Shown here piece by piece: positions 6,600 through 54,173 of a stretch of 64,000 bases of DNA. The notes under the pieces are model-generated. The model ran no database searches. It was not told the DNA's origin and saw nothing but the letters and a program-made list of their open reading frames with translations. This stretch comes from Mytilus trossulus (lineage: Eukaryota). The position numbers were made by a program, and so were the translations under genes. How positions within the stretch are numbered: the first letter of the stretch is position 1; the number at the start of each line of letters is the position of its first letter. The stretch lies in NCBI RefSeq assembly GCF_036588685.1, contig NC_086386.1, forward strand, positions 65,844,001-65,908,000, read 5' to 3'.

Positions 6600-7637
6600 T
6601 TTTTTTTTTTTATCTTTATTAAAATCAAACATCATATAATACAAATAAAACAAATTATAAAATCAATTGTCCTTGATTGTTCTCATTATAGCTATATGCT
6701 ATACTTTGTATTCACAATACTGTTATTTCTCATTTCAGGTACACAATAATTATTACAATTTAAAGACTAGAACATTGTCTGTTTCTTCTAACAAAGGGTT
6801 ATCCATTAAAAACTTTTTTTGAAATATATGACTCATATTATGACATCGACAGAGATAGACATACATATATGTTACATAATGTTTTAATGTATATTGAAAT
6901 AATTTTATCAAATTTACACTAGAATAACCACTATTCAACAAGTTTCTCCTTCTGAAGATACAAAATCTGGCAACAGACATAAAAAAATTAAGAAAAGAAT
7001 CATTCACACCTTTCATATGCCATCTCAATCCCAAAATCAATAGTTCCTCACTTCTTACTAAACTAATCTTATCTGAATCACAGTTTTCAAATATTCTAAC
7101 TAATAAGGATGACAAATAATTATGAAAATCTTCAAGTTTATCACAATTCATAAATATATGCAGGATGTCTTCCTTTTCACTGCAACACACTTTACAGATA
7201 TTATCATCAACTAAACCTATCTTTTGAAGTTTTACATTAGTAAAAATACAGTTATGTAACACCTTAAAGTCTAACTCAACCAAATTAGAAGGTTTCCAAT
7301 ACATATTGACATGTTCCCATATTTTACTGAATGCTTCAGAACTCACATCAAATTCTGATTTCCATAACTCAATACCAACAGGTTCTTCAACAATATTTTC
7401 CAACATAATAGTATATAATGTTTTAGTACTACATAATTTCAAATCATAATGCACATTTTTACAAATAATTGAAATGTCTATTGTTCTTGGTATAGATATT
7501 CTGTGAATATCAGTGTTCACTGTGTTTTTCCATTCTACAGGTATAACATTCAACAAGTTTCTATATCTATCAACTACATATTGTACATTAACATCTTCAT
7601 ATACAACTTGAATCATTTCAACTATAGCATGATCAGG
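6600..7637 (-). mobile_element. 5'-truncated Tx1/L1-clade non-LTR retrotransposon E1 inserted in tRNA-Val(TAC)
   Basis: On the minus strand it ends AATAAAGAT-(A)n joined to TCACGTCTG of the tRNA. TSD ATCACG (6 bp; 10 bp with one mismatch). Contains an ORF2 C-terminus. Confidence 0.9.
6753..7637 (-). CDS. Truncated ORF2 C-terminal region (post-RT, zf-RVT zinc finger) of E1
   Basis: LDFKVLHNCIFTN..L and CKVC-x8-HIFMNC CCHC motif typical of the L1/Tx1 ORF2 end. The frame stays open up to the truncation junction. Confidence 0.88.
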   Translation of the reverse strand, partial: PDHAIVEMIQVVYEDVNVQYVVDRYRNLLNVIPVEWKNTVNTDIHRISIPRTIDISIICKNVHYDLKLCSTKTLYTIMLENIVEEPVGIELWKSEFDVSSEAFSKIWEHVNMYWKPSNLVELDFKVLHNCIFTNVKLQKIGLVDDNICKVCCSEKEDILHIFMNCDKLEDFHNYLSSLLVRIFENCDSDKISLVRSEELLILGLRWHMKGVNDSFLNFFMSVARFCIFRRRNLLNSGYSSVNLIKLFQYTLKHYVTYMYVYLCRCHNMSHIFQKKFLMDNPLLEETDNVLVFKL

Positions 7638-10202: not shown

Positions 10203-11682
10203 TTGTGTGTTCCATTCCTGATTGGGCTTTACAGTCAATCAAGAAGATATGTTTAGATTTTTTATGGAATAATGGATCGCATTTGATCAAATATAGAACG
10301 ATTATAGGAGCTAAAACTGATGGAGGGTTAAAATACCCTGATATTTATTTAAAACTATTAGCATTTAGATTAAAATTTTTGACAAGATTTTTAGATAAGG
10401 ATTTTCATGCTATATGGAAATACACTATGACATATTTTTTGAACAAGATACACAATACAAATCTAGGTGTACATTGTTTATTTTTATTGCTACAAAAGAA
10501 AGACTGTACAAACATACCTGTGTTTTATAGGGAAATCATTGATGCATGGCAATATTTTAAACCTTATGTTGATATTGATATACGATCGGTTGATATTTTT
10601 AATCAACCAATTTTTTTGAACGAATCCATCAAGGTGAATGGTAAATGCATACTTTGGAAACAGTTTTTATTAGCTGGAATTACCAAATTGAAACATGTAG
10701 CATATGAAGTGGTTCCAGGTTTTTTACCTTTTAATGCTATTTATGAAATGATTGAAAATGTTGATGACAATGTAGATTGTAATAAACTAAGACAGCAATA
10801 TAATAGTTTGCTAGAATGTATTCCAAATGAATGGAAAAAGGTGATATTAAATGAAACAAAACCAGTTAACTGTGATGAGGTTCCATTGTTTATTGTAAAT
10901 TATAATAACAAAACAAAAGATTTTGTATGTTGTAAAACAAAAGATTTTTATGGTATATTAGTAGATAAATGTTATATTGAACCTGATGCTCATCAATATT
11001 GGTTAGAAGTTTTAATGTCCAATATGTTCCTTTTAAGTTCGTATGGACAAGTGTTCATTGTTATTGGAAATCGCCAGACTGTGTGCAATTAGATTTTAAA
11101 ATTGTTCACAATAGAATATTTACAAATTTAAAACTAAAAAGAATAAAACTTTCTGACTCAGACATTTGTGATAGTTGTAAATCTGAAGTAGAAGATTTGT
11201 TTCACTTATTTTTGAAATGTCATGATCTAGATGTTTTTCATAGCTATATGTTTAGTTTTTTATGTGAGCTTCTAGAGAAATGTAAAATTGATGTCTTGGT
11301 AAATCAAGGATATAGACAGATGTTTTTGCTTGGTATGACAAGTACTTATACTGATGTAAATACATATTTTGTTAATTTTGTTCTTTCTGTTGCAAGACTT
11401 TGTGTTTTCAAAAGGAGACAAATGATCAAAAATGATGTCAAGAAAATAGATCTTACGAGATTTTTCAGGTATACACTGAAACATTATATTTCTTATTTTC
11501 ATGTATATTGTAAGATGGTTAACAAGATGAACACTTTTGAAAGGAACTTTCTAAAGAATAATTGTAAAATCATTGAAATAGATGGTGTTTTGTTACTGTG
11601 ATACTCTATTGAATATTTTAATCTTTTATTATCAATATGAATTGTGATTTTATATGTTTTATTGAATAAAGATAAAAAAAAA
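10203..11682 (+). mobile_element. 5'-truncated Tx1/L1-clade non-LTR retrotransposon E2 inserted in tRNA-Val(AAC)
   Basis: 16-bp TSD ATCACATCCGCTTAAC (10187-10202 / 11683-11698). Ends AATAAAGAT-(A)n. Confidence 0.93.
10205..11601 (+). pseudogene. Truncated, frameshifted ORF2 C-terminal half of E2
   Basis: FLW...GGLKYPD motif that follows L1/Tx1 RT domains. Frame change near 11000. CDSC-x8-HLFLKC zinc finger. Confidence 0.88.
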
Positions 11683-24171: not shown

Positions 24172-24201
24172 TTTGAAGTAACTAAAATGTTTTTTTTTAA
24201 A

Positions 24202-24423: not shown

Positions 24424-24449
24424 TATAATTAAAAATTAAATATTACAAA

Positions 24450-27887: not shown

Positions 27888-27898
27888 TTTATTTTAAT

Positions 27899-28318
27899 TT
27901 ATTTTAATTTCCAAACAATAAAACCAGTTAATGTCATACCACCAACAACAAATGCAATCTCTCTATTTTTCTGGTCTTCTGATGGAGTATAAAAATCACT
28001 TAATGTAGGTTTAGGTGATAATGAAGTTAATTTTTTATTCGTGACACGATAGTATAGTTTCATTGCTTGGTCAACATCATCAAAAGTCTGAACCGCATGA
28101 TGTTCCTTTTGTAATTGTTCATTTATAAAATCTAATCTTTGTATTCTTTTTTTATTCCATTCTGATTGTGCTTTTTCTAATTTTTCTATAGCTTTATCAT
28201 GTCTTATTTTCTCTTCATTTGCATTACTACCCATATGTGAAAATAAATAATTACTCCCTGAAAATGCAAAAGCATTTGTTATTGCCCCACCAAGCATCAT
28301 TGTTAAAGCACTTGCCAT
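27899..28318 (-). CDS. Polinton small protein with hydrophobic N- and C-termini, 139 aa
   Basis: ORF in a tightly packed minus-strand run. Ends IAFVVGGMTLTGFIVWKLK. Confidence 0.75.
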   Translation of the reverse strand: MASALTMMLGGAITNAFAFSGSNYLFSHMGSNANEEKIRHDKAIEKLEKAQSEWNKKRIQRLDFINEQLQKEHHAVQTFDDVDQAMKLYYRVTNKKLTSLSPKPTLSDFYTPSEDQKNREIAFVVGGMTLTGFIVWKLK

Positions 28319-28334
28319 TTTATAAAAACAAAAA

Positions 28335-28571
28335 TTACTTCATAATATCAGCAGGTATAATACCTTGCTTAATCAACATATCTTTTGTTGCCATCGCAAG
28401 TAATATATCAATGGACAACATTACAACATCATTCATATTAAAATCCACTTTTGGTGCTGGCCTCCTTAAAACCTTTTTACCTATTTCTGCATATCCAACT
28501 GTTAACAATGTTTCCACTCCAGCATGATATAACATATTTGCTATTTGTTTTCCGTCTTTTTGAGTTGTCAT
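28335..28571 (-). CDS. Polinton small hypothetical protein, 78 aa
   Basis: Tightly packed ORF with an AAAATG start context like its neighbours. Confidence 0.7.
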   Translation of the reverse strand: MTTQKDGKQIANMLYHAGVETLLTVGYAEIGKKVLRRPAPKVDFNMNDVVMLSIDILLAMATKDMLIKQGIIPADIMK

Positions 28572-28586
28572 TTTAATGTACTAAAT

Positions 28587-29006
28587 TTAATTAAATTCAA
28601 AAGGATCAATTTCTTTCTTTTGTTTTTCTGGTTTTGTTATTTCTTTAATCATTCTTTCTGGTTTCTTACTTTGGTTGTAAAAAAACAATCCCAATCCAAC
28701 AATACTTATAGGAAAAAGTACAAATTTGTAATCAACTAGGGAACTGGAGTGTTTCTTGACAGAAGGGATATGTTCGTTTGATTCATAATCTGTTTCTGTA
28801 TCAGAATCTTTTGTTATTTGTTTGATTTTTGAATTTTCTTTTTTTAATTTTTCCACTTCTTTTTTTCTCAATTCTGCATTTCTTATTCTTACTTCTGCAC
28901 CTTTCTTACCAGCAGCTACTCTTTTTGGGTCTTTTGGTTTGGGTTTTTTAAATACTTCTTTTTTTTCTTCTTTGTTTTCTTTTTGTTCAGGATTTTCATT
29001 CATCAT
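28587..29006 (-). CDS. Basic protein with KDPKRVAAGKKG motif and a TM segment, 139 aa
   Basis: KGG-like basic motif followed by FVLFPISIVGLGLFFY. Confidence 0.72.
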   Translation of the reverse strand: MMNENPEQKENKEEKKEVFKKPKPKDPKRVAAGKKGAEVRIRNAELRKKEVEKLKKENSKIKQITKDSDTETDYESNEHIPSVKKHSSSLVDYKFVLFPISIVGLGLFFYNQSKKPERMIKEITKPEKQKKEIDPFEFN

Positions 29007-29635
29007 TTTTTATGTCATTTTTTTCATCTTTTTTTTGGAAATCGAGCGAAGCGAGTGGTTCGATATGTCTTGCTGTTGTTAATATTGCAGTAAAAGGAGC
29101 AAGATACATTCCATATCTATAGTACAGTTCACAACATGTATTAGTTAAAGCATTATTGATAAAAGGATCTTCCTCTAAGTCTTGTATTAAAATTGGTGGA
29201 TTAACAACTTTGAAAAACTTTGATACACCCATGACATATAAATTTATAAAAGAGTTTCCTAATGTCTTGGTCATACTAGCTCCCAATCTTGCTTCATATT
29301 TACAGTATAGTTTGTTTATTTGTTCTGTTGTCATTTTATCAATATCTGACAGTTGTAATTCTTTACCCAGATATTGTTTACTACTCCCACCAGCAACAAC
29401 GGATGATAATCTTTCGCGTTTTTTTTTCTTGAAGGGAACCGTTCACTTCGCTCGCTTCATCATCAATATTTATGTTTTCCACAATTTGCTCGCTTAATAA
29501 TTCTTCAGCATTCATTTTATACGTTTCAAAAAACGGATATAATTTATTTTTAACTTTAAAAAAATTAAATACAACATATCCAACCAATGATAAGACTGCA
29601 GTGTTTGTTGCAATTGTTAGTATTTCCAACAGCAT
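28996..29635 (-). CDS. Hypothetical protein split by one extra base in a homopolymer near 29419-29427
   Basis: Removing one A joins the 84-aa and 112-aa ORFs through QEKKRERLSSVVAGGSSKQYLGKELQLSDIDKMTTEQ. Confidence 0.68.
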
Positions 29636-29647
29636 TGCTTTTTTTTA

Positions 29648-29850
29648 TTGCTTATTTTGGTTAAATTACTTAAGAATTACTTATTTTGGTTAAATTACTT
29701 AAGAATTACTTAAGCATTACTTAAGTATTATTTTGCTTATTTTGGTTAAATTACTTAAGAATTACTTATTTTGGTTAAATTACTTAAGAATTACTTAAGC
29801 ATTACTTAAGCATTACTTAAGCATTACTTAAGCATTACTTGAGAATTGCT
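29648..29850. repeat. Tandem array of 11-bp TTACTTAAG(C/A)A units with a longer superperiod
   Basis: Read directly from the sequence. Non-coding, downstream of the ATPase gene. Confidence 0.88.
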
Positions 29851-29857
29851 AAAAAAA

Positions 29858-30535
29858 TCAATTAAGTAACCAATAATCAGTAGGTTGATCTGTCTTTAAT
29901 ATTAATTTACGATGTTTCTTTTTTTTAAGTTCTTCCTTTATTCTTTGTCTTTCTTCCAAAGTAGGAATAACATCATTTTCTCTTAGACAATTATCAAAAC
30001 TATCTCTATCTTTTGTGTAGAACATGCATAACCATTTTGTTTGTTCTCTTAAATCTTTTAAAACAGAGTTGTATCTCTGTGAAATGACCCACACTGATTG
30101 TTCCGCATGTCTTCCTGAAAATGCAAGCTCGGACAGCATATCTTTTTTCTTTGTTAGTTCTTTTGTTGCACTGCAGTCATCAATGATATATAATGTTGGA
30201 TGACCAGCATATTTTTTAAAGAACATTCTTAGTAGTTCTTGTAGCTTCTCTTCTTCATTAAGGGAACCGTTCGCTTCTCTCACTTCAACAATAGGATTAA
30301 CAATTATTAGATTTTTTGTTTTTGGTTTTCTAACATCATCAATCCATTCACGATTTTTGTATGCTTTGTTCCATTGGATGGTTGGACAAAGTATGACTAT
30401 ATATTTGAAAACTCCACTATATTCTCCTTCTAATAAATCAAGAACAAACTCTGTTTTTCCACATCCTGTTTGTCCACATATAATAGCACAATGGGGATAT
30501 TTTGGTAATTCATAAAGGGAATCGTTCGCTTCCAT
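29858..30535 (-). CDS. DNA packaging ATPase (A32/FtsK-HerA family)
   Basis: Walker A GQTGCGKT, Walker B YIIDD, SGRH arginine motif, ISQ sensor. Confidence 0.93.
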   Translation of the reverse strand: MEANDSLYELPKYPHCAIICGQTGCGKTEFVLDLLEGEYSGVFKYIVILCPTIQWNKAYKNREWIDDVRKPKTKNLIIVNPIVEVREANGSLNEEEKLQELLRMFFKKYAGHPTLYIIDDCSATKELTKKKDMLSELAFSGRHAEQSVWVISQRYNSVLKDLREQTKWLCMFYTKDRDSFDNCLRENDVIPTLEERQRIKEELKKKKHRKLILKTDQPTDYWLLN

Positions 30536-30609
30536 TTTTTAAGGGGAACAGTTCGCTTCCATTTTTTAAGGATAACCGGAGTGTATCTCGCTCCGCTCGC
30601 TTGCTTTTC

Positions 30610-30936
30610 TTTCATTTTTAAAAGTAAAAATTGATTTTATTTTTCTCTTAAATCCCACAGAATTTTTTCTCTGCCTGTTCTCCCGGTTTTTTTATTTATT
30701 TTTTTTGGAATTTTTTTGTTGTTTTTTGGGTGTTTTTAATAACGTTTTTTTTTATAAAAAAGTAAAAAAAAAAATTTTTGGGAGTAAGAAAATTTGGTGT
30801 TTTTTGGGGTGTTTTTTTGCTTTTTTTTATGAAAATTTAGGGCTCTTTTACTTGAAATGAGGGTAATTTTTTGGGGGTCAAATTTTTTTTTTTTTTTGGA
30901 GGGGGTGCGCTGGAGTCGTTCAAGTACTATACTACT
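30610..30936 (-). repeat. Polinton right TIR
   Basis: Matches left 15513-15809 plus ~16310-16342. Its inner end includes an ATGAAA start. Confidence 0.93.
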
Positions 30937-34195: not shown

Positions 34196-34250
34196 CCGAC
34201 CGTGCAAGGGCTGTATAGCCAGTCAAGGTCGTTAAAAACTTCCATTTGTT
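34196..34250 (+). mobile_element. 55-bp insertion with 11-bp TSD, probably an extremely truncated LINE/SINE 3' end
   Basis: TSD GAAAATATTTG (34185-34195 / 34251-34261). The insert folds as CGACC..GGCT-GTAT-AGCC..GGTCG and is absent from other units. Confidence 0.75.
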
Positions 34251-35906: not shown

Positions 35907-36312
35907 CATTAATGAATTGTGTCTTATTTATTTATTTATTAGTCAGCTGTCCGACTGATCATTGGCGTATTGGTGGTTTTTTAATACTCATTTGCATTAC
36001 TGTGATTTTTTATTAAGAACATTGTATTAAACATTTGAAAAGTCCTTCGTGCAAACTTATAGGAAGCACTTATAAAACCTAAAAGAAGTACGTGATACAT
36101 TCTGAAATATGGAAGAGTGCAGTTGAAAACTTTTCTTTTTATCTTGCTCTCCCCATGTGTGTCAGTGGTTTCATTTTAACCTGTGTGTGCTATAGCAATC
36201 TAAGCTGAGAGGCACAAGTTAGACTCTGATGATATGCCTATTTGTTTAGCGATTTTCACATGATATATAAACTGAAGTATAAGTTCGAAAATATTTGATA
36301 AGTACATTGTCC

Positions 36313-36389
36313 GGTTCTGTGGTGTCTGTAGTGGTTATCACGTCTGCTTTACACGCAGAAGGTCGCGAGTTCGAACCTCGCCAGAACCT
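36313..36389 (+). pseudogene. tRNA-Val(TAC) variant with a 4-bp insertion (CTGT) in the D-arm/A box
   Basis: GGTGT-CTGT-AGTGG instead of GGTGTAGTGG. Confidence 0.85.
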
Positions 36390-37887: not shown

Positions 37888-40800
37888 CATTAATGAATTG
37901 TGTCTTATTTATTTATTTATTAGTCAGCTGTCCGACTGATCATTGGCGTATTGGTGGTTTTTTAATACTCATTTGCATTACTGTGATTTTTTTATTAAGA
38001 ACATTGTATTAAACATTTGAAAAGTCCTTCGTGCAAACTTATAGGAAGCACTTATAAAACCTAAAAGAAGTACGTGATACATTCTGAAATATGGAAGAGT
38101 GCAGTTGAAAACTTTTCTTTTTATCTTGCTCTCCCCATGTGTGTCAGTGGTTTCATTTTAACCTGTGTGTGCTATAGCAATCTAAGCTGAGAGGCACAAG
38201 TTAGACTCTGATGATATGCCTATTTGTTTAGCGATTTTCACATGATATATAAACTGAAGTATAAGTTCGAAAATATTTGATAAGTACATTGTCCGGTTCT
38301 GTGGTGTAGTGGTTATACTAGTAACCCGAATTTAACTTGAACGGACAAAAACGTGTTAACGCTATTTAAATGAGATTGATCATTATTTGATAAAGATTGA
38401 CAAAAATTAAAAATTATATTTAATTCATTTCAATTCATATCAATTCATTTTAACGCCAGTCAAAGAGATTTCTCTGCGGTGAATCAATTGAAATCAAGTT
38501 GCTGGTTAGTTGCGTTAAACTAATAGGCCACGCCCCCGTTAAACTATTTCAAACATGCATTAATTCGTTTTAAACATGGATGAGACCCGGGCTTTTTACA
38601 GGTAAATCACCCAAGCAAAACGACCTCGATGTATCTATCGTCTTTTGTTTCAAACTTTAAATGCGTCGGTGCATTACGTTTGCGCGCATTACCATTACAT
38701 TTGCACGCGTGGTTTAAAAATGTCAAACTAGGGAATCTGTTGAAAATAAATATAGTTAGATGGATAACATAAATTTATAACGATGGGCAAGTTGATTTAA
38801 GTTTAAAGACCTAGACTGTCTATATATCGGCATACTCTCACGTTTTTTAATGTTTTAAAAGAAAACATATATTTACGTTTTGGGCATTAAATATAAGTCT
38901 ACTTACCAAATTGAAATGAACATAAACTTTGTTAAAAAAAAATGGAAAAGAAACATTCTGCATTGTTGCTTTCATATAATTTTATTTCCTATACATTTGA
39001 GTGGAAATTTCTAAGTTAAAACTGATTGTAGTATAGATAAAATATTCCATCTAGGTGCTCTCGGTGAAGTTCGCGTTACATATTAAAATGAATTTCATTG
39101 GTCGGACCGTTTGCAAACTTTCAATTCAATACACAATATGGAGTCCAGTTCGGAAAAAGAAATCAAATTAAGACTCTACGATGTCCGATTAAACAAACAG
39201 AATTTAGAAAAATAACACTTTTACGATTCTTCCAACCACGACCAAAATATCTATCTTTTTCTCCGCTGAAAATCATTATGAGAACAAGTCAAAAATTGCC
39301 GGAGCTTGATTTATGATGCATACGAAACTTTAATAAATAATTATACGGTTTGTATTTTTCCAAATAACTACTATATCCGATAAAAATCGAAAAAATAAAT
39401 TATCGGTAAAAACTACCGATTTTTCTATGAGACAAACATTATCGTTATATGAGTCGAATTTGTAATATAGATTCATGAAGGACAAACCATATCCTCATGT
39501 TTTTTTATGCAGCACTAGTAAGCATAGTTCGTCTGTTCTCGCTTCAAACCAAACCATCATAAATACACCAGAGATGACTAAAATGGAAGTCTTTTCGCTC
39601 ATTGAGATTTTTTGGTAGGTATTAAGCTTCAATTCGACCATTAACTACCGTAAATTTTAGATTCTTTCAAAATTACGAAAAATATGTTATAATCCTTGAC
39701 CTTCTCAAAGCTTATACTTCGTTCAGTCGATTGTGTGAAAGTTTTTTTTAAGAAACCGGTCTTTTAATGCAAAAAAAAAAAATAAAAGATAAAAGCGATT
39801 TTTGTTTGAAGTAACGAATCTCATTCTTACAAGAAAATGAAAGTTTTCGTGTTTTAGGTTGTGCTGAAGCAAACGTAACAGTTGAAATCAAAGTTACACT
39901 CCGAGATTACACTAAAGACATTTCGCTAGCACACATGGGACTAGATTTATTAATTGTTCATTTGCAGGTCAAAATTAATAATTATGCAAAACAAATGATA
40001 AAACTTCCCAATTTAAAATTGAGAAAAATCCGACAGGAAACCAAAGTACAAAGGTACGGCATTTATTTGAAAACAATCTCCATCCAACTTCAAAATGTGA
40101 GGTAAATCGATAAGCTTACGCTAGCCAAGCAACCAACAGACAAAATAAATCTTGCCTCTCCGATCAAGACTATCTATAGACACGGAATAAAAAATAACGG
40201 AAAATAACAGCATGTTAGAATGGTTACAAACACATGTATGCAAACATGAAGCAGCTGTTTCTTTACTGAACTGGTCAGTGGTAATACAAAGCCAGGGTTT
40301 CAAAAAGAGGAAGAAAAAGAAAAAGACATTTAAACATGCTAAAATTTATGAAAAGGCAAATCAGACATAGTGTTTAACTAAAATTGAAAAAAAAAGGATC
40401 ATAATAGTCTATAATTTGTAAACATTTATTTCAGAAAGCTAACAACAAAATGAAAGGAAACTATGTATTGCTTAAACACATTGATCAGAGCCGTAACAGA
40501 CTCATGTTTGAAATTTTAAAACAAAGTCACAGTACAAAGGCTTGTCTTCATATCAAATTGTTTTCACGGCGAATGTCTTGCAATAAGCAAACTCCATTAC
40601 TCCGGTGTCGCCCCGGTATAATTTTGCGTGATCCATGCATTCCCCATTTCCATTCTCAATTTTGTGTTTCTGAATTACTTGTCTTTTGTTCATTTACTTC
40701 CCTACTAAATGTCTATAGTCTAAGTGTTAATTTTCATTTGTAAATGTCTGGTTTCGCAATGATGCATGTCCACAAATATCCAGACATTGTGCGGAAAAAT

Positions 40801-42229
40801 ATAGTTTAGAAGATATTATTCTATGCTGAATACAGAAAACATATAGTCGTTTCTTCAGGGAAGATTTGAACTCTAACATTAAAGAGTACCAAACTGGCTT
40901 TTCTTTTTGAGTATTTCCATCCGGTGTCTTACATTTAAGGGTTTAACTTGTATTAACATGAATAAGTCGTGTCAACTTACTGTCAAGATAGACGCCTTTA
41001 TAGAAAATAAAGGACTGTGGGGTAAACATACACGGGACCTAATCGAACACAAAGTTAGAGCTTAACAAAAATACAAATTATCAATGGTCAGCGTTTTTAT
41101 TCCTGGTCATCTTTATAGTCGCTAGCTATAGAGGGTCTTCAACAATGAAAGAATCTGAGAGTACTTAAGTTTCTGACAGCTAGTTCACATTGCTACGTTT
41201 AAAGTCTTCCTGTCCGTCATCCCGCAATCTGATAATTTGATTTTCTGTCTCAGGACCTGCGCATAATGCCATATATAAAATACTTGCCACTGAACATTGA
41301 ACCAAGTAAAATCAATACACATCGTTTCATATGTAAAAAAAAACAATCTACAGATGATTATGCATTTCTTAGTTATAGTTAGATTCCCTTTTGTGGGAGT
41401 TGAACACTTTGCGGGACAATTTTCTTCTCATGGGAAGATATATTTTTCCCATGGGAATATTAGTTTTTTCTTTTTTTTCCTTCAGAATTTGTAAAAGTGC
41501 TCTGAAATATCGAAATGGACTGACAATCATGCACTAGTAACCAATGACTGGAACAATTTAACAGGCATTTCAATAAATTAAAAGTATTTCAATCATACAC
41601 TCAAAAGTCTTTTTATATCGTTGAATGATTGATAGAAATTCTACCGTCCAGCAGATGATTTTACAATTTGAATCTTTCACCTTTGTTTTCGGTCAATATC
41701 ATCGTGCATTTCATGTAATAGTGTTTGCTGAACTGTCAAGTATCAGAAACATGTCTTTTGAATTTCAGAATTAAAATTATAATTTTGTTTTAATCTATAA
41801 TTAAACATGGGGAATGTCGAATCGTGTTTTAGATTGTTTTCTAATTTTAACCTTTTAATTTCGTGAATTTACATCATAATTATTATGAATGTAATTATTC
41901 TTTTTAGTGTAACTCGATATGCGTGTTTTTCGCCACTACAAAGATGTGCACGTACTTTTTCTAGATCTTTTATAACCTCTCAGGTAATTTTCAAAGAAAA
42001 TCCAGAGTTTTCGGCATTTACAAGGACGCGTACGGATGAGGATTAAAAATATAATCTTTGTGATATATTCACTTGTACTTTACCCGTAGGCTGTCTTCGT
42101 GTACTGTAATTTATGGTTTAAAGGAATACGATTACTTTATTTCTCATAAAACTTCAATTACTAGTTATCAAGAACATACATAAACATAACTATAAGGTAA
42201 AATTAATACATGCATGTGTAAACGATACA

Positions 42230-42700
42230 ATTAAATTAACTTGGAGGACTGACTTTCCCATTTATAACTTTTACATAGTTTTTCTTATATTACAATATTT
42301 GATGAGTTTAACTGTTGATCAGCTTTAAAGATATAAGGGTTTGACTAACAATAGTTCCTTAAAAATTTCCTTCTTTTTATATAGTTTATATGTTCTACAA
42401 TTCATAATGTAATGGTACTCGTCATCAATGTTGTTTGTGTCATAGAGACGACATATTCTGTCTTCTCTGTGTAAATCCTGACACCTTCTGGACTCAATCG
42501 GCAACTACCACATCTATATCTGCGTAATATATGAATTTAGAAATGTAAAAGGGAGTTTTCTAATTGATAATTCTTTTTGAAAATATGACAGCATTATGTT
42601 TTATGCGATTCTGCATGAAAGCAAAGAATTCTTCTTGAAACTGGTCCTTGGGGTTTTGTTTAATACATTTTGACACCCATTATCACAAACTGTGCACAAT
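42230..42700 (-). pseudogene. Degenerate 3' fragment of a non-LTR retrotransposon ORF (RTE-X/CR1-like C-terminus)
   Basis: Hand translation with frameshifts gives IKQNPKDQF...RYRCG..PIESRRCQDLHREDRICRLYDTNNIDDEYHYIMNC, a decayed RxC..C....DE.H....C finger. Confidence 0.65.
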
Positions 42701-45004
42701 TACGGAAAACTAATATACGTCCTTGCTGTGCACTATAATTCGAAATAGTTGTAAATTGCAATTTTTTTGAATTTCTATTTTTTCCTCACTAGTTAGGTGA
42801 AAGTATGTTAAAAATTTATTGTAAATTGCGAAAATGCATTACGAGCATAAATCTATAATTTTAAGTTAGAATTTAGAGTCTCAACTTTTTTTCAAAATCT
42901 CTTTAATATTACTGATGTATTATTTATGTTTATGTCAAAGGCGTTTGATTGGATAAAAGTTAAAGTTAGGCGTGGTTTTTGGTAACTTTCCTCCAATCAA
43001 CTGGCCCATTCGACAAACCTGTGTGCGCTGATGCGTGTAAACTGGGTATTGTAACGGTACGTGTCTTACATCAGAACCTATCGTGCGTGACCAATGTTTA
43101 TTGTATAATTTCTTGTCACGTGGTCAAATTATCTGAAATACAAGTTCTAAAGGTGCACTACAGCAGAATTACAGTTTCAGTTGTTATAATTCAGACACAA
43201 ATTAATATGGTTATTTTGAAATCTGCTGCATGGTTTATTCCATTAGCAATCATATTCAAGAAAAGTTGTAAATCTTGAATATTCTGTAATATCTTTATGA
43301 AGCGTGATTGAGAAGTAGATTCACACAGATACTGCAATCATTGTCATCTTTAAAATTTACTTTGCATGCACCAAATTTCTAATCCATTTGTTTAGAACAA
43401 TAAAATATGTTTAAACTACAAAATATCTAAATGAGATTACATAGGAATAACTTGTGGTGTATTCATGTATACTAGTATGTAATAATAATAAAAAGAAACC
43501 AACAGCACTATTTGACGAAGACGAAGACGAAATAAAAGATTGAATTCTAACGTCCAGTGACATATATTACAATGATGTCGAAACAGAACTTGAAATCGAC
43601 AATAGGTTTTCATAGAACCGTCGCTTTTCCAAAGAATTCACGCTAAGTTGCGATTTCACAACTTCGGGTTCGCATTATAGTTATACATGTACAAAATAAC
43701 TAACAATAAACAAATTCTGATGATTTCTTCAACTGTTCTAGGACTTTCTAGTTGTAATATAAATCTGTGGTTTTTCTATATTCGTACTTTCGACGAAGCA
43801 AAGCAGTTCGATCTAGATCTGGACATGTATGCATTAAACATTTACAATATTCAATAGTTGTACATTTTTTTGTAGAACATGTAGAAAAATCCGTCTTTTC
43901 GGATAAAATCTTAATTTACGTACCATTGTAAAATTGAGAACGGAAAATGAGGAGATGCATATACGGACCCTGGATTTAAATCAGATATGATCTGGCGTTT
44001 TTTTTCTTTTTTCAAAATACATATTTTTAATTGTGACTATCTTTAGTTTCGAATCTTTCTTTCATTCTAATTAATTTAGTTTAAATGAAAATAAGGAAAT
44101 TGGAATTAAAACACTGTTGAAGAGAAACTACATATTCGGGTTAAATTCACCTTAGTTTGTTAATTCAAGTTTGACATCTAACATCATAATCCGTAATCCA
44201 CATTTACCCGACAACCTTAAATTGTTTATTGTATTTTATCAATCGAATATCCTCACACAAGAGACTGAGACAAAATAAGTTATTTGTAAGGGTATTTATC
44301 AAAACTGAAATGATTGAAAATATCTTTGGAGAATATGAATTTGCCTAATAAGCGAATAATTATAATACATATATTTCAACATCTTCAATAGAGAGATTAC
44401 TGATAAGATGTCCAAAATATATGTACAGGTATACATTTTGCGATTAAGTGCTCTATAGTATGTCAATGATATCGAATGCCCGCTGAGTGTTAAACATGTA
44501 TGACACTGCTGGTTTTAATTTTCTGACTCAAGTATAAATTTAAGAAAAGTTAATAGTTTCTGAATATTTTTAGATTCAATATTTTATCATTGTTATTATT
44601 TTTTAAAGTCTCACCACATACAAACATAAAATGAGAATCACAGAACTAAACAAAACATTTAAACATTTGCATTGTGTGCATCAATCTTTAAAAAGATAAA
44701 TGAGACGCGTATAAGACACAATATATAAATATAAACAAATTTTTACTCATTTATATTTAAATTTACAGTGTCCGTATATAACAAATAAAATGAAACACCT
44801 TTTTATATAAGAACAAGTGAAATAAAATGCCGTTTCTTTTCAATAAAATATTGTTGATGTTTTTGACATCTATTGCAGCAACATTGTCGTTATTGAATTA
44901 ATATATAAATTTTTCGCTATTTGATACTTATAAATTAAAATCACGGTTAAGCTTAATGTATTATTATATGTCTATAATGGGCATTTTAAAAGGACAGGAA
45001 TATA

Positions 45005-45325
45005 AAAAAGAAGATGTGGTATGATTTCCAATAATAAATTTGTTTATTAAAGTGTCAATTTGACAACAGTCCACAAGAGACCAAAATGACAGAGACATTA
45101 ACAAATATAGGTCACCATACGGCCTTCAACAATGAGTAATGCCCATACCGCAATGAATGAAAAATAAATATGTAAAACATAAACAAACGACAACTATACT
45201 GAATTGCAGGCTCCTGACTTGGGACAGGCGCATACATAAATAATGTGGCGGGGTTAAAATTGTTAGCGGGCTCCCTACCCTCCCCCTAGTCTCGATCAGT
45301 GGTATAACAGTACATGTACAACATA
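45005..45325 (+). repeat. Interspersed host repeat (AAGATGTGGTATGATT...ATAGGTCACC..GGCCTTCAACAATGAG); inverted partial copy at ~46002-46090
   Basis: Two related copies in opposite orientation plus a stub near 47000. Resembles an abundant mussel repeat (recognition only). Confidence 0.6.
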
Positions 45326-45666
45326 ATAACGAAAAAAGAGGGTTTGGATGGGGTTAAATGATTAAAGAATAATGCCCTTGAAAAATGAAGATAAGAGAAT
45401 AATGGGCATAAAAAAAAAAGATTAGAGAAATGCATGGTCTAAAAATATAATGAACATTGAATGATTAATAAAAGAAAACGCTAAAAATTAACTGGTAACA
45501 GAATTTTCCCTTCTTAAAATTTAAAGAAAATTATCAAAGTTATCATTGTAAAAATATGATAAAAGTGAAAACAATCTTGGTAAACCTTTTTTGGTTTCGT
45601 GATAACAGACTATAGGATTCAGTCAATATGAACTGGTTTCCGATACTTCTACTCGGGCTTTAAATT

Positions 45667-45973
45667 CAGTGGCGGATCCAGAGGGGGCGTAGAGGGCGTA
45701 CATCCCCCTTTTGACCGGACTTTTCTTTTTAAAATGATTAATCAGACTAGACTTCGTGAATTAATAGGGAGATACAGCATCTAAAATGTCCAACCCTTAC
45801 ACCTTACCAGCAACTATAAAATATGCATGCCCCACGTCAGGAACCGTTTAAAAAGTGCATATTTCACTTATTTTATGTTTGTAGTCCTAAAAAGGGGCCA
45901 AAACAATATTTCGCCTTGCTTCCCTCGTTACAAAACTACAGCCCCTCTTTCAAAAAACCTGAATCCGCCCCTG
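45667..45973. mobile_element. ~307-bp MITE with CAG(T/G)GGCGGAT(C/T)CAG TIRs (hAT-like)
   Basis: CAGTGGCGGATCCAG ... CTGAATCCGCCCCTG. Flanks tttaaatt/tttatatc could be a decayed 8-bp TSD. Confidence 0.65.
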
Positions 45974-48900
45974 TTTATATCTGACTATGCGGTTGACTTT
46001 AGCTCATTGTTGCATGCCGTACAGTGACCTATAGTTGTTAATTTCTGTGTCATTTGGTCTCTTCGAAGAGTTGTCTCATTGGCATCTTCTTAATTATGTG
46101 TAGTCAAAATCACTGGAAAGAACTGATGAGAATTTGGACTTGTTACTTTATGGAACTAGCACTTAAATCATGCAGAACAATACACACCAACACGTCATTG
46201 TTGAGAAACAAATGAAAGCCTTGCTGTTGTTTGGAAATCACCGTTCTCATTCATTTAAAAGAATGATTTTTTCAAAGATTAAAGAAAACTGGGGAAAAAA
46301 TTAGAGAATAATGCGTAAAAAATTACTTTTAAAGAATAGACTTATTTTTTGAAGATTAGAGAAAAAAGGGATGAAAATTAAATGTTTACAGAATAACAGA
46401 CCCCCCCCCCCCCCCCCCCCCGATTCAGACCCTCCTATAAGAACCATTTTAAATAGGCTTAACTCATTAGATGGACAAAAAGATGGAGGGGATGGTGTGT
46501 AATATTTGTAACTGGGCGTTAAGCAATCATGAATCATTTGATCTATTATATTTTCATTTCTTTATTCTGTAATTTAAAGTGCTTATCCCATTATCATCTT
46601 TATTTCTGTAAACTCTATTTATTTACTTTCATAGCTTCATATTTGTACATGTACATGGTATTTGAAACAGGAACAATATACCGTCGTATATTACAAAAAT
46701 TGAGAATGAAAATGAGGAATGTGTAAAAGAGACAAAAACCCGACTATAGAGCAGACAAAAGAGGAAGGCCTAAATTACGGGTCTTCAATGTAGCGAGAAA
46801 CTCATGCGTATACATACATTCATTATTGTATGCACATATCATGCTTGTACCAGAGACATATAATACAATTATATGTCTCTGGATAAACATAATTATTTAG
46901 AATTAAAAAGAGTATAGTTATCAATAAGTTTAAAGTGAAAAATCGCGAATTATCCCTTTATGGCTTGATGAAGATCTTCATCAAAGAACGAATGAATAGA
47001 AGAAGATGTGGTATGCTTGTCAATAATTTAATTCACCGTACATGTGGAATACCGTACGATAGTTTTTTGGTCTAAAAAAGAATACATCTACTACATGTCT
47101 TTGATTTAACAAATGATAAAAGATCTGGCATAAAAACGTGGTTCTGAATATAATCTAAAAATTGAAGAAAAAGGCAGACTAAGACGTTATACAATTTAAA
47201 GAATACCAATCTTAAAGTTTTATAACTTAGAGGTATACTGTCCCCCTTCTTTTAACCTACAAGAAAACTTCACGAGAGCCGATGATTAAATATCCACCTT
47301 GTTTTTCCGTATATATATATATATATTAAATAACTGAAGAAGCAATTCAAAGGATATTCAATTTGTTTCAATATTGCCTAAAACTGAGGCTACTATAACT
47401 TTTATACATGAAGTAGTCTCAGCCGAAAACAATACATTATATTGATAATATAAGCAAGTGTGACAAACCAAATTGAATCACAAATTTGTTGTTTGGGATT
47501 GTTCATGGTTCACTTATATTCCTTTCACGGATTTGGCTATACTTTTGGACCTTTTGGATTATAGCTCTCCGTCTTTTATATTAAATTTGCTTTTGATTTC
47601 ATATATTTTGGCCTCAAGCATCACTGAAGAGACATGTATTTTCGAAATGCGCATCTGGTACAAGAAAATTGGTACCGTTAATTGTATTCTATATTAACCA
47701 GTGACACGTGTCCTAATTTTTAAGAAAAGGGATAGAAAAAGTATGAAACAAAAATATCCGGTTTTTCAAAACTATATTTTCAAAATGCATTGCATGATTT
47801 AAACCGATTTAAAGTGTTTCATTTATTTTATGTTTGTGCGTTTACGAAAAAATGATAGAAAGTTAAACTTCAATGTTCATGACTTACAAGTATTATATTT
47901 CTTGTAAAATTGATAGATGAGCGGTTTTCACAAATACCGAACATAAGAATATATCGTAAACGTCAATTAATGAACAAGCAACCCAACGAGAAAAATATAA
48001 TTTCAGAGGCATCTACATGTACATCTATAAGTAGTTTTGATTTAGAGAAATCATTCACAAGTTCATTGCCATATGATTCTATTCAGATTTGTGCGTTTTT
48101 TCGATTTACGAATAAGATACAAAAAAATAATTGAAGCAAAAGAAAGAAAGAGACATGAAATAACGAATTAACATAAGTTTACAAATACATACCTAGATGC
48201 ATTTACCAAAACAATATTTGAACTTATTAATACATTTTTTCATATTATTGTAATTTTATGTTTATGTACCCGATATGGAGTTCTTCTAAAATTAAAAAAA
48301 CACTTGAATGGGTATTTCTGGTGTATATACATGTATCACACTTGCTATCTACATGTACAATATACGGAAATGACACGGCTGGGTATTGTAAAGTTACTGA
48401 AGGTAGATTACTGGCAGGTGTATATCCCCGGGCGAAGAATTTACTGATTTGTCAAAACGGTTAGATGTAATTTGTCATTTTGTTAAGGTTTGAATCGCGC
48501 TCATCTCTTTTTTTTTATTATATGAATTGCACCAATAAATGAAACTTGACACATTCCCCATTTCCATTCTCAATTTTATTAATTGTGTCATATTTATCTC
48601 GAAACTATTAACCTATTTACACGTACATGTAACATTAGAATACTTACTTCAACTGTTGAATAACTTTATAATTACTAAAATTCAAAATTATGTACTTCTC
48701 CTTCCGTATGCTATGTTTTTTTGTGTCAATTCTATCTTTCCATCAGGTCCAGAGTGCACTTTTTTTGTCAGTCTAAGTGCTCTAAGGAGGCCCTTTCAGT
48801 TTGAGATTTCTGTACCTACATGTAAATACCTAAAAGGACCTCCTCAGTGCACTAAGAAGAAACATTTGAAAACAAGTCTATGATATTTGCACAATTAAAT

Positions 48901-51718
48901 GATAGTTTTATTGGCGCTAATGAATGTTGCAGTTTTTATGATAAAGTTATGCAAAAAAAAATTCGCGTAATTAACTTGTGGTGCAAATTAATTCTTTTTT
49001 AGCCAAACTAGATATCGGCCTTCAAAACATTGTGTATACACAAACAAAGCAAAATTTATCTTTTACGCAGTCTAGCCGGAGAATACAAGTTTTTGCAATT
49101 TGTGAAGGATTTTAATTTTAGAATGTAATGAACAAGTAAGAAGATCGTTAAATCGGAAAATGAGCTATGCACGATGAAAGGGAAAAGTTTGGTGCGTCGA
49201 TAAAAATTTCATGGATTCACTTGATAATTGTACAGTTTCAAGTCTTTAAATAACACCCATTTGTAGAACTGATTATTTCGATCCTTCAAATATGCATGTG
49301 TAGAATAATAATAAAAAAAATATACTATTAAGTCTCTTTCATATTGATACTGTAGATTTGTATTTTAACATCGATTGCAAACATAACGTTCAGTGAGAAA
49401 TATTTCATGTATTCGTACAGAAAACAAATCAACTTCTTTCAGAATACAATTGATTGGTTATTGAAGTAAATGATTTGCGACAGAATCAGTGACACTTGGC
49501 CAGAAGCGTACCTCTAAAATAAAGAAATATAAAAAAAAAAGGTTACTCATAATGGACTTTTTACAGTCAATGCCGAAAATATTAAATACATCGATTTAAA
49601 TTATGTACACAATAAATATTTTTTGTGTACAAAGTTTTCCGTGTCTACATTTAGATACGAGTATCATATAGAAAACCATCATGTTATATATTTAACTATT
49701 TTATTTTCAACAGATTCACAAGTTTTGCATTTTTAGACCGCGTGTGCATATATGTTTTAATGTTTTTATTTTAATTCCTTAATTATATATGAACATGATA
49801 CGTGTATTATTCATTCGTTTCAACGTTTTAAATTGTGAAGCATGTGAATTCAATAAGACTATACGCATTTAAAGTTTGAAACAAAAAACGATAGATTACA
49901 TCGAGGTCGTTTTGCTTGGGTGATTTACCTGTAAAAAGCCCGGGTCTCATCCATGTTTAAAACGAATTAATGCATGTTTGAAAAAGTTTAACGGGGGCGT
50001 GGCCTATTAGTTTAACGCAACTAACCAGCAACTTGATTTCAATTGATTCACCGCAGAGAAATCTATTTGACTGGCGTTAAAATGAATTGATATGAATTGA
50101 TATGAATTAAATAAAATTTTTAATGTTTGTCAATCTTTATCAAATAACGATCAATCTCATTTAAATAGCGTTAACACGTTTTTGTCCGTTCAAGTTAAAT
50201 TCGGGTTACTAGTGATATATATATATATTAATTAAATTAATTATCACGTCTGCTTTACACGCAGAAGGTCGCGAGTTCGAACCTCGCCAGAACCTGGTTT
50301 GTTTTTGCAAATGGGCACCCCATAACTTTTAATAATGAAAGAAATTGTTCGTGTAACTGCAATTGTTTGAAACCGAAAATTTGGCTAGATATAATTCAGA
50401 AATATTTGTTAGCACCCAAGGTCATGTAGCAATCTATTGAAAAACCTATCATCTCCTAAACAGTATGTATACTGAGGCAAATGTAAAGTCTATATAGCTT
50501 TTGGGAGATGACAGAATGGTTCAGAAACTGACATTTGGTACGACGTAACATTATCTAACGTGTTATATATCATACTGAATGGCGGTTAAATTGTGTCAGT
50601 TGAAGAAAGAAGAAAAAAACGAGAAAAAAAAAACCAACCACAGCAATTGCTTTTAACGTGTTACAATTTATAGTAGCTGTATTGAGAACTTTTACAGTTT
50701 TAATGAAAATCCGAATAGTAAATCCTACCGTTTTCTCAAATTGTTAAACTTCGGCATCGAATTAAAAGAGGATAACTATACATGCAATTGTGCCGATAAT
50801 ATAGCTAACTTAAACAAGTTGACAAATGATAGGCGTACATTTACTAAAAAGCAAAACAAATAGGGGCCTATTCAAGTGCACCTTTCATGATGCACTCGCC
50901 TTAAATGCAATGAAACAATAAAAGTCATTGCTGCCTGAGAATGATTGTTGGTTCCGTATGATACATGTAGCAAAATGACATATCTATTTTATGCAATTTC
51001 CTCTCGATTTTGAAATTATTACAATTTGAGATTTCGTAGTAAACCGTCTAGGAAATGAAGTGTTGTTAATCCTGCTTTCTTTTTCTTCTTCTTTTTTTTT
51101 TAGTTAAAAAGAGCTATTTAGGTGTAATACCACCATTGATTTTCCCCTATTAGTCTTTGTTAAATTTGCACTTTTCAAAAAATTGTGTAGAATTTATCTT
51201 TGTTTCAAATAAAGAAATACTTGGCATGAGTAAAGTTTTATCCTGTCCAGTTCTATAGAAAAAGTTTCACATAACATTTCATTGCATATAAGAAAATAAC
51301 CATCATTGGAAGTTAACCAATCAAATTTCTCCCCTTATGCTATCTGTGTACAAGGTTTAGTCACCATGCAACCTCAAGATTACAAAATTTTCTATAGAAA
51401 TCGCAAATAAAAAATAATGGTATTTTGAAATACCCAAGACATTTGTTTATGACTCAGAAATAGTTTTACTGCAATAAAATGTAGGATTAATTACCTACAA
51501 CGGTCAAATTCAAGGGAATATTTGTTTAGACCTACTTTCGTATGCAACCGGATGTGACGTACCATGATTTGGTGGTATTACACCTTTAACATAAAAAAAA
51601 AAAAAGAAGAAAATTTCTCGATTAAAGACTCTCTCATTTGTATAAGTTGACGCGTCAGTGCCGGGGCAATGTAAGAAAAAAAAACCAAAAAAAAACTTGT
51701 CCAAGCCGAAAAAAAGTA

Positions 51719-52494: not shown

Positions 52495-54173
52495 CTTTTT
52501 TTTGGTCGAGTGGACCTTGATGTGAACGGACGTACATTTTGTCGTATGGAAAAATACACTCTGTTTATATGTTATTGCTCGGATTTCCAAGCTAGATAAA
52601 GGATTAATGTGATTCTGACTTGTAACAGCAGTAAGTCTTTTTCATTATATTGCAAAATTTCGTCGTAAAGTAACTTTTGTAGACATGTTAAGATCATCGT
52701 GTAAAATGAGGTCCTAAAGGGGAATTTATTAGGATTGTGTTTTTTATTCCATCATGGAAAGATTACCGTTATTATTGACAAGTACGATACATAATGCTTG
52801 TGAACAATTTCGTAACATTACATTTACAGTGCACGGAGAAAACGATAAAGCAAGAATATCAATTATGTTTACTAATCAAGAGAGTATCAAAAGTAAGCGT
52901 AAATCGAATTCTACAATTAAACGTGACAATAAAAGACTGAGGGAATATAATGAAAACAATAGTGACACTATAATAAAAGAATGTGCCACAAATACTCAGT
53001 GTTCAAATAATGCAGATAATTATGTCGAATTAGTTAGCGAAATGGACGTTGAAGTTACCCCGAGTGGTACCCCAACAACGTTAACAGGTGAAATTCAATC
53101 AGCTGAGAATGTGAATATTGATTTGTGTGTACACAAAACAGGTAAATCGCCTGACTTATCGGAATGTGTAAACAATAACAAAGATGTAAATACAGGTGAA
53201 AATGTATGTTCAGCAGACAATATTGAAGAAATTAAGGTAGCACAGGAAGATTGGAATTTGGATGATAATTCTGATTTCTTTGCTACTTTTAAGTTCCGTA
53301 AATCAAAAGATAGTACATGTGACAAACCGCCGGTTTCAAATATTTCTGTTAAAACGAAAGAAATTAAGAAATCAAATATAAGAACTGAAGAAAGTGAAAC
53401 AGATGATGCTAATATGAAAACCGTACATGATGCAAGTGATGATGAAGAATGTGAATTAATTTCCAAATTTGTCCTGAAAAAAAGTAAATTTACAATTGGT
53501 AAACTGATTTGCAAAATTGAAAAAACGGGTAGACTTATTATTTTGGATATAGACTCAAACACATACGAAGAACTAGTTAGAAGTGACCGATATTACAAAA
53601 AGTTCAATACAGTATTGACACAAGACTTCAGTGATGTTCGTGAAACGCAGCATATGAATGCTGAAATTGAACAGGCAATACTTCAGATGATAGACTATGC
53701 TAAAAATAAAAAATTGTTGTAAATAAATTGTTGATAAATATATATTCTTTGTGAGCATGCGTGTATGTATTTGTAAGATTGAGTGTATGCTAGCTTTTGT
53801 TTTTTGCCTGCGGAATTATTTATGACTGCTGTCACATAGAAATTGTTTGATATTGATGAATATCAACGTTTATGATCGTGAACTCGCATGGTGGAATGGT
53901 TTCCAGCCCCGTACGAACATTTGATTATTTCGTTTCAATTTTCGTCTCTTTATTTTCTGTAAACATTGAAAGACAATTACCAGTTAATTTCATACTTTAT
54001 ATTGTATTCTGCGTAGGTTTCTAATATAAGTTGAATGATTGAGCTGCATGAAAGATTAGTGTGAGGTAGCATGATAGTATAGGGACTTGATGTTTTCCAA
54101 TAATATGTTGTAAAGTGATGTAGAAGATGATAAAGATTTGTGCAATAAATTTTATCAAGATAAAAAAAAAAAA
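52495..54173 (+). mobile_element. Polyadenylated single-ORF, RT-less retro-element E3, 3' end joined inside tRNA-Val(TAC)
   Basis: Array homology stops at 52494. 259-bp leader, 322-aa ORF, ~440-bp trailer, then AATAAA...AAGAT-(A)12 joined to TCACGTCTG, the same junction as E1/E2. Confidence 0.88.
52754..53722 (+). CDS. Intact 322-aa protein of unknown function carried by E3
   Basis: Uninterrupted ATG-TAA ORF in AT-rich DNA. Compact N-domain with basic KSKRKSNSTIKRDNKRLR, acidic disordered middle, folded-looking C-domain. No RT, endonuclease or CCHC motif. Confidence 0.85.
   Translation: MERLPLLLTSTIHNACEQFRNITFTVHGENDKARISIMFTNQESIKSKRKSNSTIKRDNKRLREYNENNSDTIIKECATNTQCSNNADNYVELVSEMDVEVTPSGTPTTLTGEIQSAENVNIDLCVHKTGKSPDLSECVNNNKDVNTGENVCSADNIEEIKVAQEDWNLDDNSDFFATFKFRKSKDSTCDKPPVSNISVKTKEIKKSNIRTEESETDDANMKTVHDASDDEECELISKFVLKKSKFTIGKLICKIEKTGRLIILDIDSNTYEELVRSDRYYKKFNTVLTQDFSDVRETQHMNAEIEQAILQMIDYAKNKKLL

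Follow-up and report, generated by a model that had tools for sequence, protein, structure and literature searches.

Several groups of mobile elements bear on what is described here. Large non-coding CACTA members carrying host-like DNA are found in plants; MULE/Mutator elements, which have long terminal inverted repeats (TIRs), make an 8–11-bp duplication; piggyBac elements have ends of the CACTAG or CCC type and a TTAA duplication directly at both ends; and Academ-type ends read TAG. Choice of target is a feature of others. Tx1-clade elements choose theirs via their own endonuclease (PMC4494074), and DNA transposons that target microsatellites include some CryptonV families (as cited in PMC8869645) and MuTAnT (as described in PMC4486113).

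Structure of the split tRNA gene

In the 64-kb stretch of mussel (Mytilus) DNA analysed (the window), one tRNA-Val(TAC) gene of a tRNA array with 2-kb units is split by an 11,897-bp element (38317–50213; Table 1), much as the initial annotation had it: an 11.9-kb long-TIR element in a tRNA-Val D-loop, with an AT filler. Its inverted repeats of about 350 bp align over 350 columns with 97.7% identity (E 3e-170), and a second, sub-terminal block of 72 bp is inverted between its ends (83% identity). On the left, the GGTTAT of the tRNA runs to 38316 and is followed by ACTAGTAACCCG from 38317. On the right, CGGGTTACTAGT runs up to 50213 and is followed by a G, a 26-nt filler consisting of A and T only, (AT)7-TAATTAAATTAA, and then TTATCAC again. 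TTAT flanks the element on both sides, and the 1,973-bp array unit breaks off at unit position 622 and restarts at 619, a 4-bp overlap. The earlier claim of a duplicated TTA(T) with about 27 bp of added filler is borne out by these junctions, the filler being the G plus 26 A/T-only bases.

Of six boundary pairs tried, none yields a matching duplication together with ends that are intact and symmetric; the sole match, AT, comes with an asymmetric left end. The true terminus is probably CACTAGT, with the C lost on the left. At no boundary pair was there a duplication match of MULE/Mutator size, up to 11 bp. Academ-type TAG ends gave no duplication, and Helitron 3' ends (CTAG|T), considered by eye at both termini, were dropped (no hairpin).

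Because the halves of the split tRNA match the intact gene, and the flanks share 99.4% and 99.9% identity with the nearest sister units, the junction irregularities are probably as old as the insertion. The two flanks may stem from different units, since at three spacer SNP positions the type changes across the element or close to it. At the right junction the sequence folds back onto the target, with GTGATA pairing with TATCAC and TAATTA repeated, a fold that is statistically weak (15 of 200 shuffles fold equally well, z −1.8); a left-junction hairpin was no better than shuffles (74/200). The filler has an alternative possible source, as its first 17 bases recur inside the element at 47313. 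The inverted repeat is also enriched in GTTAA (6 occurrences vs 1.6 expected, p ~0.01, for a motif picked after looking).

Table 1. Features of the split tRNA-Val(TAC) gene, the element and the neighbouring insertions (positions in the window)
Feature	Position	Strand	Remarks
LINE A, 5'-truncated	6600..7633	-	same D-loop site, another TAC gene
LINE B, 5'-truncated	10203..11682	+	homologous site of AAC gene; ~16-bp duplication; 40% aa identity to A
5' half of split tRNA-Val(TAC)	38295..38316	+	positions 1–22; ends GGTTAT; contains A-box TAGTG; matches intact gene at 56127
Left terminal inverted repeat	38317..38666	+	begins ACTAGT; terminal C probably missing; match of X4 record 9 also begins at 38317
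Non-coding interior	38667..49862	.	~30% GC; full cover in four public runs
Left sub-terminal block	38699..38770	+	83% to right-hand block
Likely decayed LINE C-terminal relic within element	42328..42504	-	a lead; match scores in text
Zone of nested very-high-copy short repeats	44724..48863	.	7 of 10 depth bins; edges near 44999, 46063, 47581, 48546–48581
Right sub-terminal block	49681..49751	-	
Right terminal inverted repeat	49863..50213	-	ends ACTAGT
G	50214..50214	+	probably element's last base (minus strand CACTAGT), or start of inverted target copy
A/T-only filler, 26 nt, (AT)7 then TAATTAAATTAA	50215..50240	+	
3' half of split tRNA-Val(TAC)	50241..50295	+	positions 19–73; TTAT repeated
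Insertion G, poly(A)-ended	52495..54173	+	last 24 nt in common with A (92%); 3' junction at same site

Coding content and copies of the element

None of the 118 stop-to-stop frames of the element (at least 38 aa) reached the Pfam cut-off, with sub-threshold matches in three of them (E 0.01–0.04), and none of its six stop-read-through frames had any Pfam match. No transposase with DDE, C(2)C and H(3–4)H motifs and no tyrosine recombinase was found among its frames by Pfam, in agreement with the initial annotation, which had called the element non-autonomous. When 15 LINE proteins were compared with the element by tblastn, nothing fell below E 0.7. For a 96-aa frame at 39815 the protein atlas gave no usable match, and Rfam returned the tRNA half, one sub-threshold snoRNA match and nothing else. 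For the likely LINE relic, the best matches (0.96–0.97) were without Pfam, and the nearest named clusters were zf-RVT at 0.93.

In contigs of four public runs, out of 24 listed, all 30 bins of the element were covered in every run. Depth, which here is summed contig depth and not copy number, was a median 53 times as high in run X7 as in run X1 over the 19 interior bins, and 5 times as high over the seven nested-repeat bins. From run to run the interior depth rises and falls as a single block, and the element therefore likely moves as one unit. In run X8 the interior median depth was 17,000 (summed), no lower than that of tRNA-unit contigs (4,400–4,900). Among the loose ends listed, in which nested repeats dominate, one had a foreign outer flank (record 9 of run X4). 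It starts to match at 38317; the 841 letters before that point are foreign and do not correspond to the tRNA-Val flank. The copy is just 91% identical, and the base before ACTAGT is not T. No read or contig spanning the element junctions was seen in the four runs. A 26-mer from the inverted repeat had no match in viral and metagenome contigs; shorter inverted-repeat patterns matched 2, 10 and 9 loci, of which 0/21 extended past 20 bases, and these were dropped as chance.

Full cover, block-wise depth and the one foreign flank point to a dispersed multi-copy unit. With its inverted ends and no transposase found, the element has the features of a non-autonomous TIR DNA transposon in the broad sense, and likely belongs to a multi-copy family of mussel DNA transposons whose mobility depends on an enzyme encoded elsewhere. 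This would be a family of large non-coding repeats that appears to be about ten times as abundant in some mussel data sets as in others. Such a family would escape ORF-based libraries and would be useful to know for mussel genome annotation, and is not a new mechanism.

Relation to described transposons

The element resembles EnSpm/CACTA elements of the CMCT clade in its probable CAC..GTG ends, with CACTA at the right end, but its left end lacks the C and no transposase was found in it; plant CACTA repeats are also much shorter than its 350-bp repeats. For CA..TG ends, the right end fits if G 50214 is the element's, the left end begins AC, and X4 record 9 excludes only a T before ACTAGT. A 2-bp AT duplication would fall in the 2–5-bp range given for the clade in PMC12730594; it fits just with asymmetric ends, and TTAT is parted from the end by the filler. 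The end motif had no match in the curated bivalve libraries of PMC10294476 (files 24 and 25), of which the opening ~400 bases per entry were covered and file 24 comprises autonomous elements only.

The inverted repeats of piggyBac Kenshin begin CACTAG(A), with 6/6 agreement with the right end of the element (PMC4298943); the left end lacks the C. In contrast to piggyBac, no TTAA lies directly at the ends (left TTAT, right ATAT). As one bivalve hAT-Tip100 also begins CACTAG, this motif is not diagnostic. Presumably there are piggyBac groups that duplicate ATAT, a lead for which our literature search found no supporting paper.

Like Dada, the 11.9-kb sequence is a DNA element that lies in a tRNA gene close to the A-box, and Dada-tV uses tRNA-Val as well. 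However, the Dada families examined in PMC3706591 and PMC8869645 have no terminal inverted repeats and make 6–7-bp duplications, and Dada-tV lies in the anticodon arm. Here, the inverted repeats are 350 bp long, a 6–7-bp match is absent from all six boundary pairs, and the TTAT repeated across the filler amounts to 4 bp. Dada copies lie mostly in small-RNA genes; the one foreign flank listed for the present element, from a 91% copy, differs from this tRNA flank. The adjoining (AT)n recalls the CryptonV families that insert in microsatellites, but it is present on one side only and no recombinase was found in the element. Of the features of Crypton ends, namely 4–6-bp direct repeats without inverted repeats, the repeated TTAT fits the former, but long inverted repeats are present.

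The shared D-loop position and the route of insertion

The D-loop position GGTT(A)TCAC was met by four insertions. The initial annotation had put all four within about 2 bp of one site; they do share the D-loop position, but while A, G and the 11.9-kb element are in TAC genes, B is at the homologous site of the paralogous AAC gene. The breakpoints of the element lie no more than 2 nt from the poly(A) junctions of the other three insertions (A, B and G). Full-length relatives of LINE A have a PF03372/PF14529 endonuclease, a PF00078 reverse transcriptase (RT) and PF13966 (zf-RVT), and match Mytilus proteins with up to 100% identity. The 11.9-kb element has the D-loop position in common with these target-specific Tx1/L1-type LINEs (A, B and the dependent G), but has inverted ends, no poly(A) and no RT, which supports the view that a different transposon class sits at a LINE site.

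Since the other three insertions end in poly(A) and would be expected to use one common site, the 11.9-kb element is the only independent coincidence. Its chance of hitting the D-loop position (≤2 bp from either site) is 10/1973 = 0.5%, or 2/186 = 1.1% if AT is required and 2/38 = 5% if TTAT is required, figures that are post hoc and take no account of open chromatin at tRNA genes. One X4 unitig begins exactly at ATCAC (50243), as would be expected if other animals also have poly(A) junctions there. The tRNA A-box TAGTG is identical to the last five bases of the element, and within each 1,973-bp unit TAGTG/CACTA is confined to the two tRNA A-boxes, which is a possible LINE-free reason for the insertion site.

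We tentatively favour, at a little short of an even chance, a reading in which a non-autonomous transposon, once excised, was captured by DNA repair at a D-loop break that the resident LINE endonuclease had probably opened. A transposase acting in trans would have excised the element, and a LINE endonuclease targeting GGTT/ATCAC would have cut the tRNA-Val(TAC) gene. End joining may then have taken off the left terminal C and produced the A/T filler, through slippage and through snap-back synthesis templated by the target end. A fold-back with a repeated short motif is the pattern of templated end-joining filler, and a single end-joining event accounts for both junctions more simply than the two-step idea considered below. 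The break in the split tRNA gene is something we infer from one junction pair and, because the filler is without poly(A), nothing directly shows LINE action there. The element's family probably does not itself target tRNA genes. If correct, this would be a naturally occurring example of a complete 12-kb DNA transposon being patched into a retrotransposon cut site.

Alternatively, a transposase could have inserted the element into GGTT-AT-CAC, duplicating the central AT (2 bp), followed by a later re-cut that was resealed in place with loss of the C and addition of the filler; the LINE site would then be shared by chance, helped by open chromatin. We consider this rather unlikely, as it requires two events plus the 0.5–5% coincidence, and a re-cut element remaining in place is unusual. 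It does make use of AT, the only duplication fitting any boundary pair, a target CAC beside the real end would look like a second end, and the CMCT-clade elements described in PMC12730594 combine CA..TG ends with 2–5-bp duplications. Under the two-step idea, which the initial annotation had also raised and which is unlikely, a LINE-site break was repaired with an (AT)n tract into which an AT-repeat-seeking element then inserted. The (AT)7 directly after GTG, with just two such tracts in the 64 kb, and the existence of microsatellite-targeting DNA transposons (CryptonV, MuTAnT) agree with it. However, the left side has no extra AT repeat, the element would have had to insert at the first AT of the seven, its left terminal C would need to have been lost in a separate event, and none of the 33 tRNA-Val 5' halves in the window is a filler-only gene. 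Animal EnSpm elements may target TA repeats; our literature search found no paper in support of this.

It is distinctly improbable that the element has a true preference for tRNA-Val, whereby its transposase would take the A-box TAGTG-GTTAT-CAC for a look-alike of its own end, insert beside it and converge on the LINE site. The confinement of TAGTG/CACTA to the two A-boxes speaks for it, the SNP switch across the element could stem from recombination between two same-site insertions, and short end motifs of the Dada elements described in PMC3706591 recur in their target genes. A dedicated targeting enzyme, however, should leave clean ends, and of the 17 tRNA-Val(TAC) 3' halves in the window just one has the element, though interior depth in X8 is no lower than that of tRNA-unit contigs. 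The mismatch of the sole foreign flank among the loose ends listed with the tRNA-Val flank argues against strict tRNA targeting, and the convergent targeting that had been proposed for this element is not supported. Were the flanks of other copies tRNA genes, this would be a tRNA-targeting DNA transposon lineage structurally unrelated to Dada, with a testable end-mimicry rule. We regard as quite doubtful the broader idea that an uncatalogued 12-kb long-TIR mussel family either homes on tRNA-Val since the Pol III A-box spells CACTA, a DNA transposon and LINEs converging by unrelated means, or regularly lands in LINE endonuclease cuts. Very unlikely, too, is a route like that proposed for tyrosine-recombinase Cryptons, in which an excised circle with A/T donor flank at its end-to-end junction would have recombined with the tRNA at TTAT. 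A single crossover at TTAT would yield a 4-bp direct repeat with a one-sided extra tract, and the Cryptons covered in PMC3212892 have 4–6-bp direct repeats and a proposed circular intermediate, but they lack terminal inverted repeats, their recombinase-site spacers are given there as 6–8 bp against ~30 nt here, and Pfam found no recombinase in the element. Misassembly is extremely unlikely: tandem arrays are hard to assemble and no spanning read or contig was seen, but a complete repeat-to-repeat element lies between both gene halves in exact phase, with a 4-bp overlap.

Element structure and junctions

The DNA element with long terminal inverted repeats (TIRs) splits a tRNA-Val(TAC) gene at the D-loop site GGTT(A)TCAC (coordinates are tabulated below). 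An alignment of its two ends spans 350 columns at 97.7%; an additional 72-bp block matches at 83%. On the right, a G (50214) and 26 bases consisting of A and T alone separate it from TTATCAC, and TTAT thus lies on both sides. Re-reading the sequence bore out the junctions given in the initial annotation, which had described a real observation correctly. Both halves of the split tRNA agree with the intact gene, and each flank closely matches its nearest sister unit (99.4% and 99.9% identity); the insertion event is therefore recent.

Contigs from four public sequencing runs (X1, X4, X7 and X8) were compared with the element. In X4, record 9 (1,167 nt, depth 27, 28 differences in 325) begins its match exactly at 38317, preceded by 841 letters that do not align to the tRNA flank. 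Thus, one diverged relative sits in a context other than this tRNA, with a base other than T preceding its ACTAGT. As a G also stands at the right end, the simplest interpretation is that the true terminus is CACTAGT and that this copy lost the C from its left end. A deep X7 contig skips a block present at the right end only; in other copies the inverted repeats may therefore reach ~430 bp or more.

Coordinates of the element, of other insertions and of array features
Feature	Position	Description
Long-TIR element	38317-50213	11,897 bp, ACTAGT to ACTAGT
Nested-repeat zone	44724-48863	inside element
Internal match to filler	47313	first 17 filler bases
Right-end block	49781-49862	~80 bp
Insertion A	6600-7633	truncated LINE
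Insertion B	10203-11682	truncated LINE
Insertion G	52495-54173	329-aa frame without Pfam match
Orientation flip	~12040-12080	near-perfect palindrome, short spacer
Polinton/Maverick-like insertion	15513-30936	15.4 kb, in spacer; AGTAGT..ACTACT ends; 6-bp TACATG duplication; long open frames
Short insertion	34196-34250	55 bp; lies ~26 bp 5' of a TAC gene; duplication of 11 bp
TAC genes with 4-bp insertion	36310-36335; near 60075; near 62055	GTGT-CTGT-AG, directly 5' of A-box
Spacer-SNP unit blocks	1-12 kb; 12-38 kb; 50-64 kb	second boundary at or near element

The tRNA-Val array and its shared insertion site

The unit map shows that the window consists of ~1,973-bp units in tandem, each carrying a tRNA-Val(AAC) gene and a tRNA-Val(TAC) gene; 27 tRNA genes were called in it. 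The first 12 kb are oriented opposite to the remainder, and the palindrome at the flip is as expected for a fold-back inverted duplication. The three TAC genes sharing a 4-bp insertion are absent from the tRNA calls; this insertion is possibly one old footprint, later spread by array homogenisation. The Polinton-like insert, whose frames look by eye like those of a putative DNA polymerase B, integrase and packaging ATPase, coincides with no spacer-SNP block boundary in the window.

In insertions A, B and G, (A)TCAC directly follows the poly(A) tail. A and B both contain zf-RVT, their proteins being 40% identical, and the final 24 nt are common to G and A. Full-length relatives of A carry endonuclease, RT and zf-RVT domains, a set that fits the L1/Tx1 type, with Tx1 suggested by the domains. 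Among the protein matches to the array LINE, 10 of 15 bore the names of M. coruscus or M. edulis, most at 95-100% identity, which marks the host as a Mytilus mussel. The same D-loop position is used by two distinct LINE families (A and B), in TAC and AAC genes; a literature search found no tRNA-Val D-loop described as a Tx1-type LINE target. A ~277-bp duplication of the unit flanks G and leaves the upstream tRNA intact; G is possibly a LINE-dependent non-autonomous element.

The initial annotation had counted four insertions at one site. The position is indeed common to A, B, G and the element, but B lies in the AAC gene rather than the TAC gene, and since A, B and G are expected to share one target, the element is the sole independent coincidence. 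The chance of its falling there is 0.5-5%, a figure picked post hoc that varies with the element's needs.

Possible routes into the tRNA gene

Loss of one base on one side, with slipped and partly inverted A/T filler opposite, is typical of end-joining and unlike the clean joining of a transposase. We rank first, tentatively, a single repair event: a break would have opened beside the LINE cut in the tRNA-Val D-loop, and one end-joining event would have inserted the element there, with the left terminal C lost and A/T filler added on the right. This ranking reflects that one event accounts for the position as well as for the two junctions. At the right junction the sequence folds back onto the target (GTGATA with TATCAC, and TAATTA repeated), although 15 of 200 shuffles do so equally well. 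Six boundary pairs were tested for duplications of 2-11 bp, and the sole match was AT, with the left end minus its C; normal insertion with re-cutting afterwards comes next, and we think it unlikely. The two-step route of the initial annotation, through an AT tract, is rather improbable, and integration of a circle highly so. The unusual landing in tRNA-Val was probably a repair accident.

Several observations count against end-joining. The filler's first 17 bases are found again within the element. The element ends in the same five bases as the A-box TAGTG, a motif that, per unit, is confined to the two tRNA genes; end motifs of Dada elements are similarly echoed in their targets (PMC3706591). 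A true tRNA preference, also raised initially, nevertheless seems doubtful, slightly more so than the AT-tract route: among the loose ends listed, the flank check of other copies gave one informative contig, X4 record 9, outside this tRNA flank. The element junction lacks poly(A) as a mark of LINE action. Three spacer SNP positions switch type across or near the element, with the upstream allele kept in one downstream part-unit. The switch may reflect an ordinary gradient, loss of the DNA between two cut units, or two insertions that recombined. No reads spanning the element junction were seen; misassembly is nonetheless the least probable reading, and a very remote one.

Affinities, coding content and depth in public runs

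We class the element as a non-autonomous TIR transposon, with EnSpm/CACTA as its closest likeness. The CMCT clade is defined by CA..TG ends together with duplications of 2-5 bp (PMC12730594). CACTAG also begins the piggyBac Kenshin (PMC4298943) and, in library entries of about 400 bases, one bivalve hAT, so the end motif cannot assign a superfamily. The length of the duplication and the long inverted repeats rule out Dada identity (PMC3706591 and PMC8869645). In the bivalve libraries of PMC10294476, 14 of 33 supplementary files were searched, with entries truncated at about 400 bases; the family could be present in full-length bivalve libraries, Repbase or Dfam. A partial literature search, of text rather than sequence, found no description of the element or of any long-TIR element in tRNA-Val.

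The absence of a transposase, reported initially, was upheld: none of 118 frames (at least 38 aa) reached the Pfam cut-off, and none of six read-through frames had a match. The interior is about 30% GC with nested very-high-copy repeats, and likely holds a LINE relic. Of the 24 runs listed, 20 each contained between 30 and 46% of the sampled words; with evenly spaced differences, this would amount to an identity of about 96-97.5%.

Depth was compared in the four runs, which carry four organism labels and come from four studies. All 30 bins along the element were covered in every run, and in the 19 interior bins without nested repeats the CV of depth was 0.22 (X7), 0.29 (X8), 0.67 (X1) and 0.65 (X4). 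Summed contig depth, which is not a copy number, was 53-fold higher in X7 than in X1 for the interior, against only a 5-fold difference for the nested repeats. The interior thus varies as one block, as a mobile unit would. Small indels and skips were many and differed from run to run, as expected without coding constraint.
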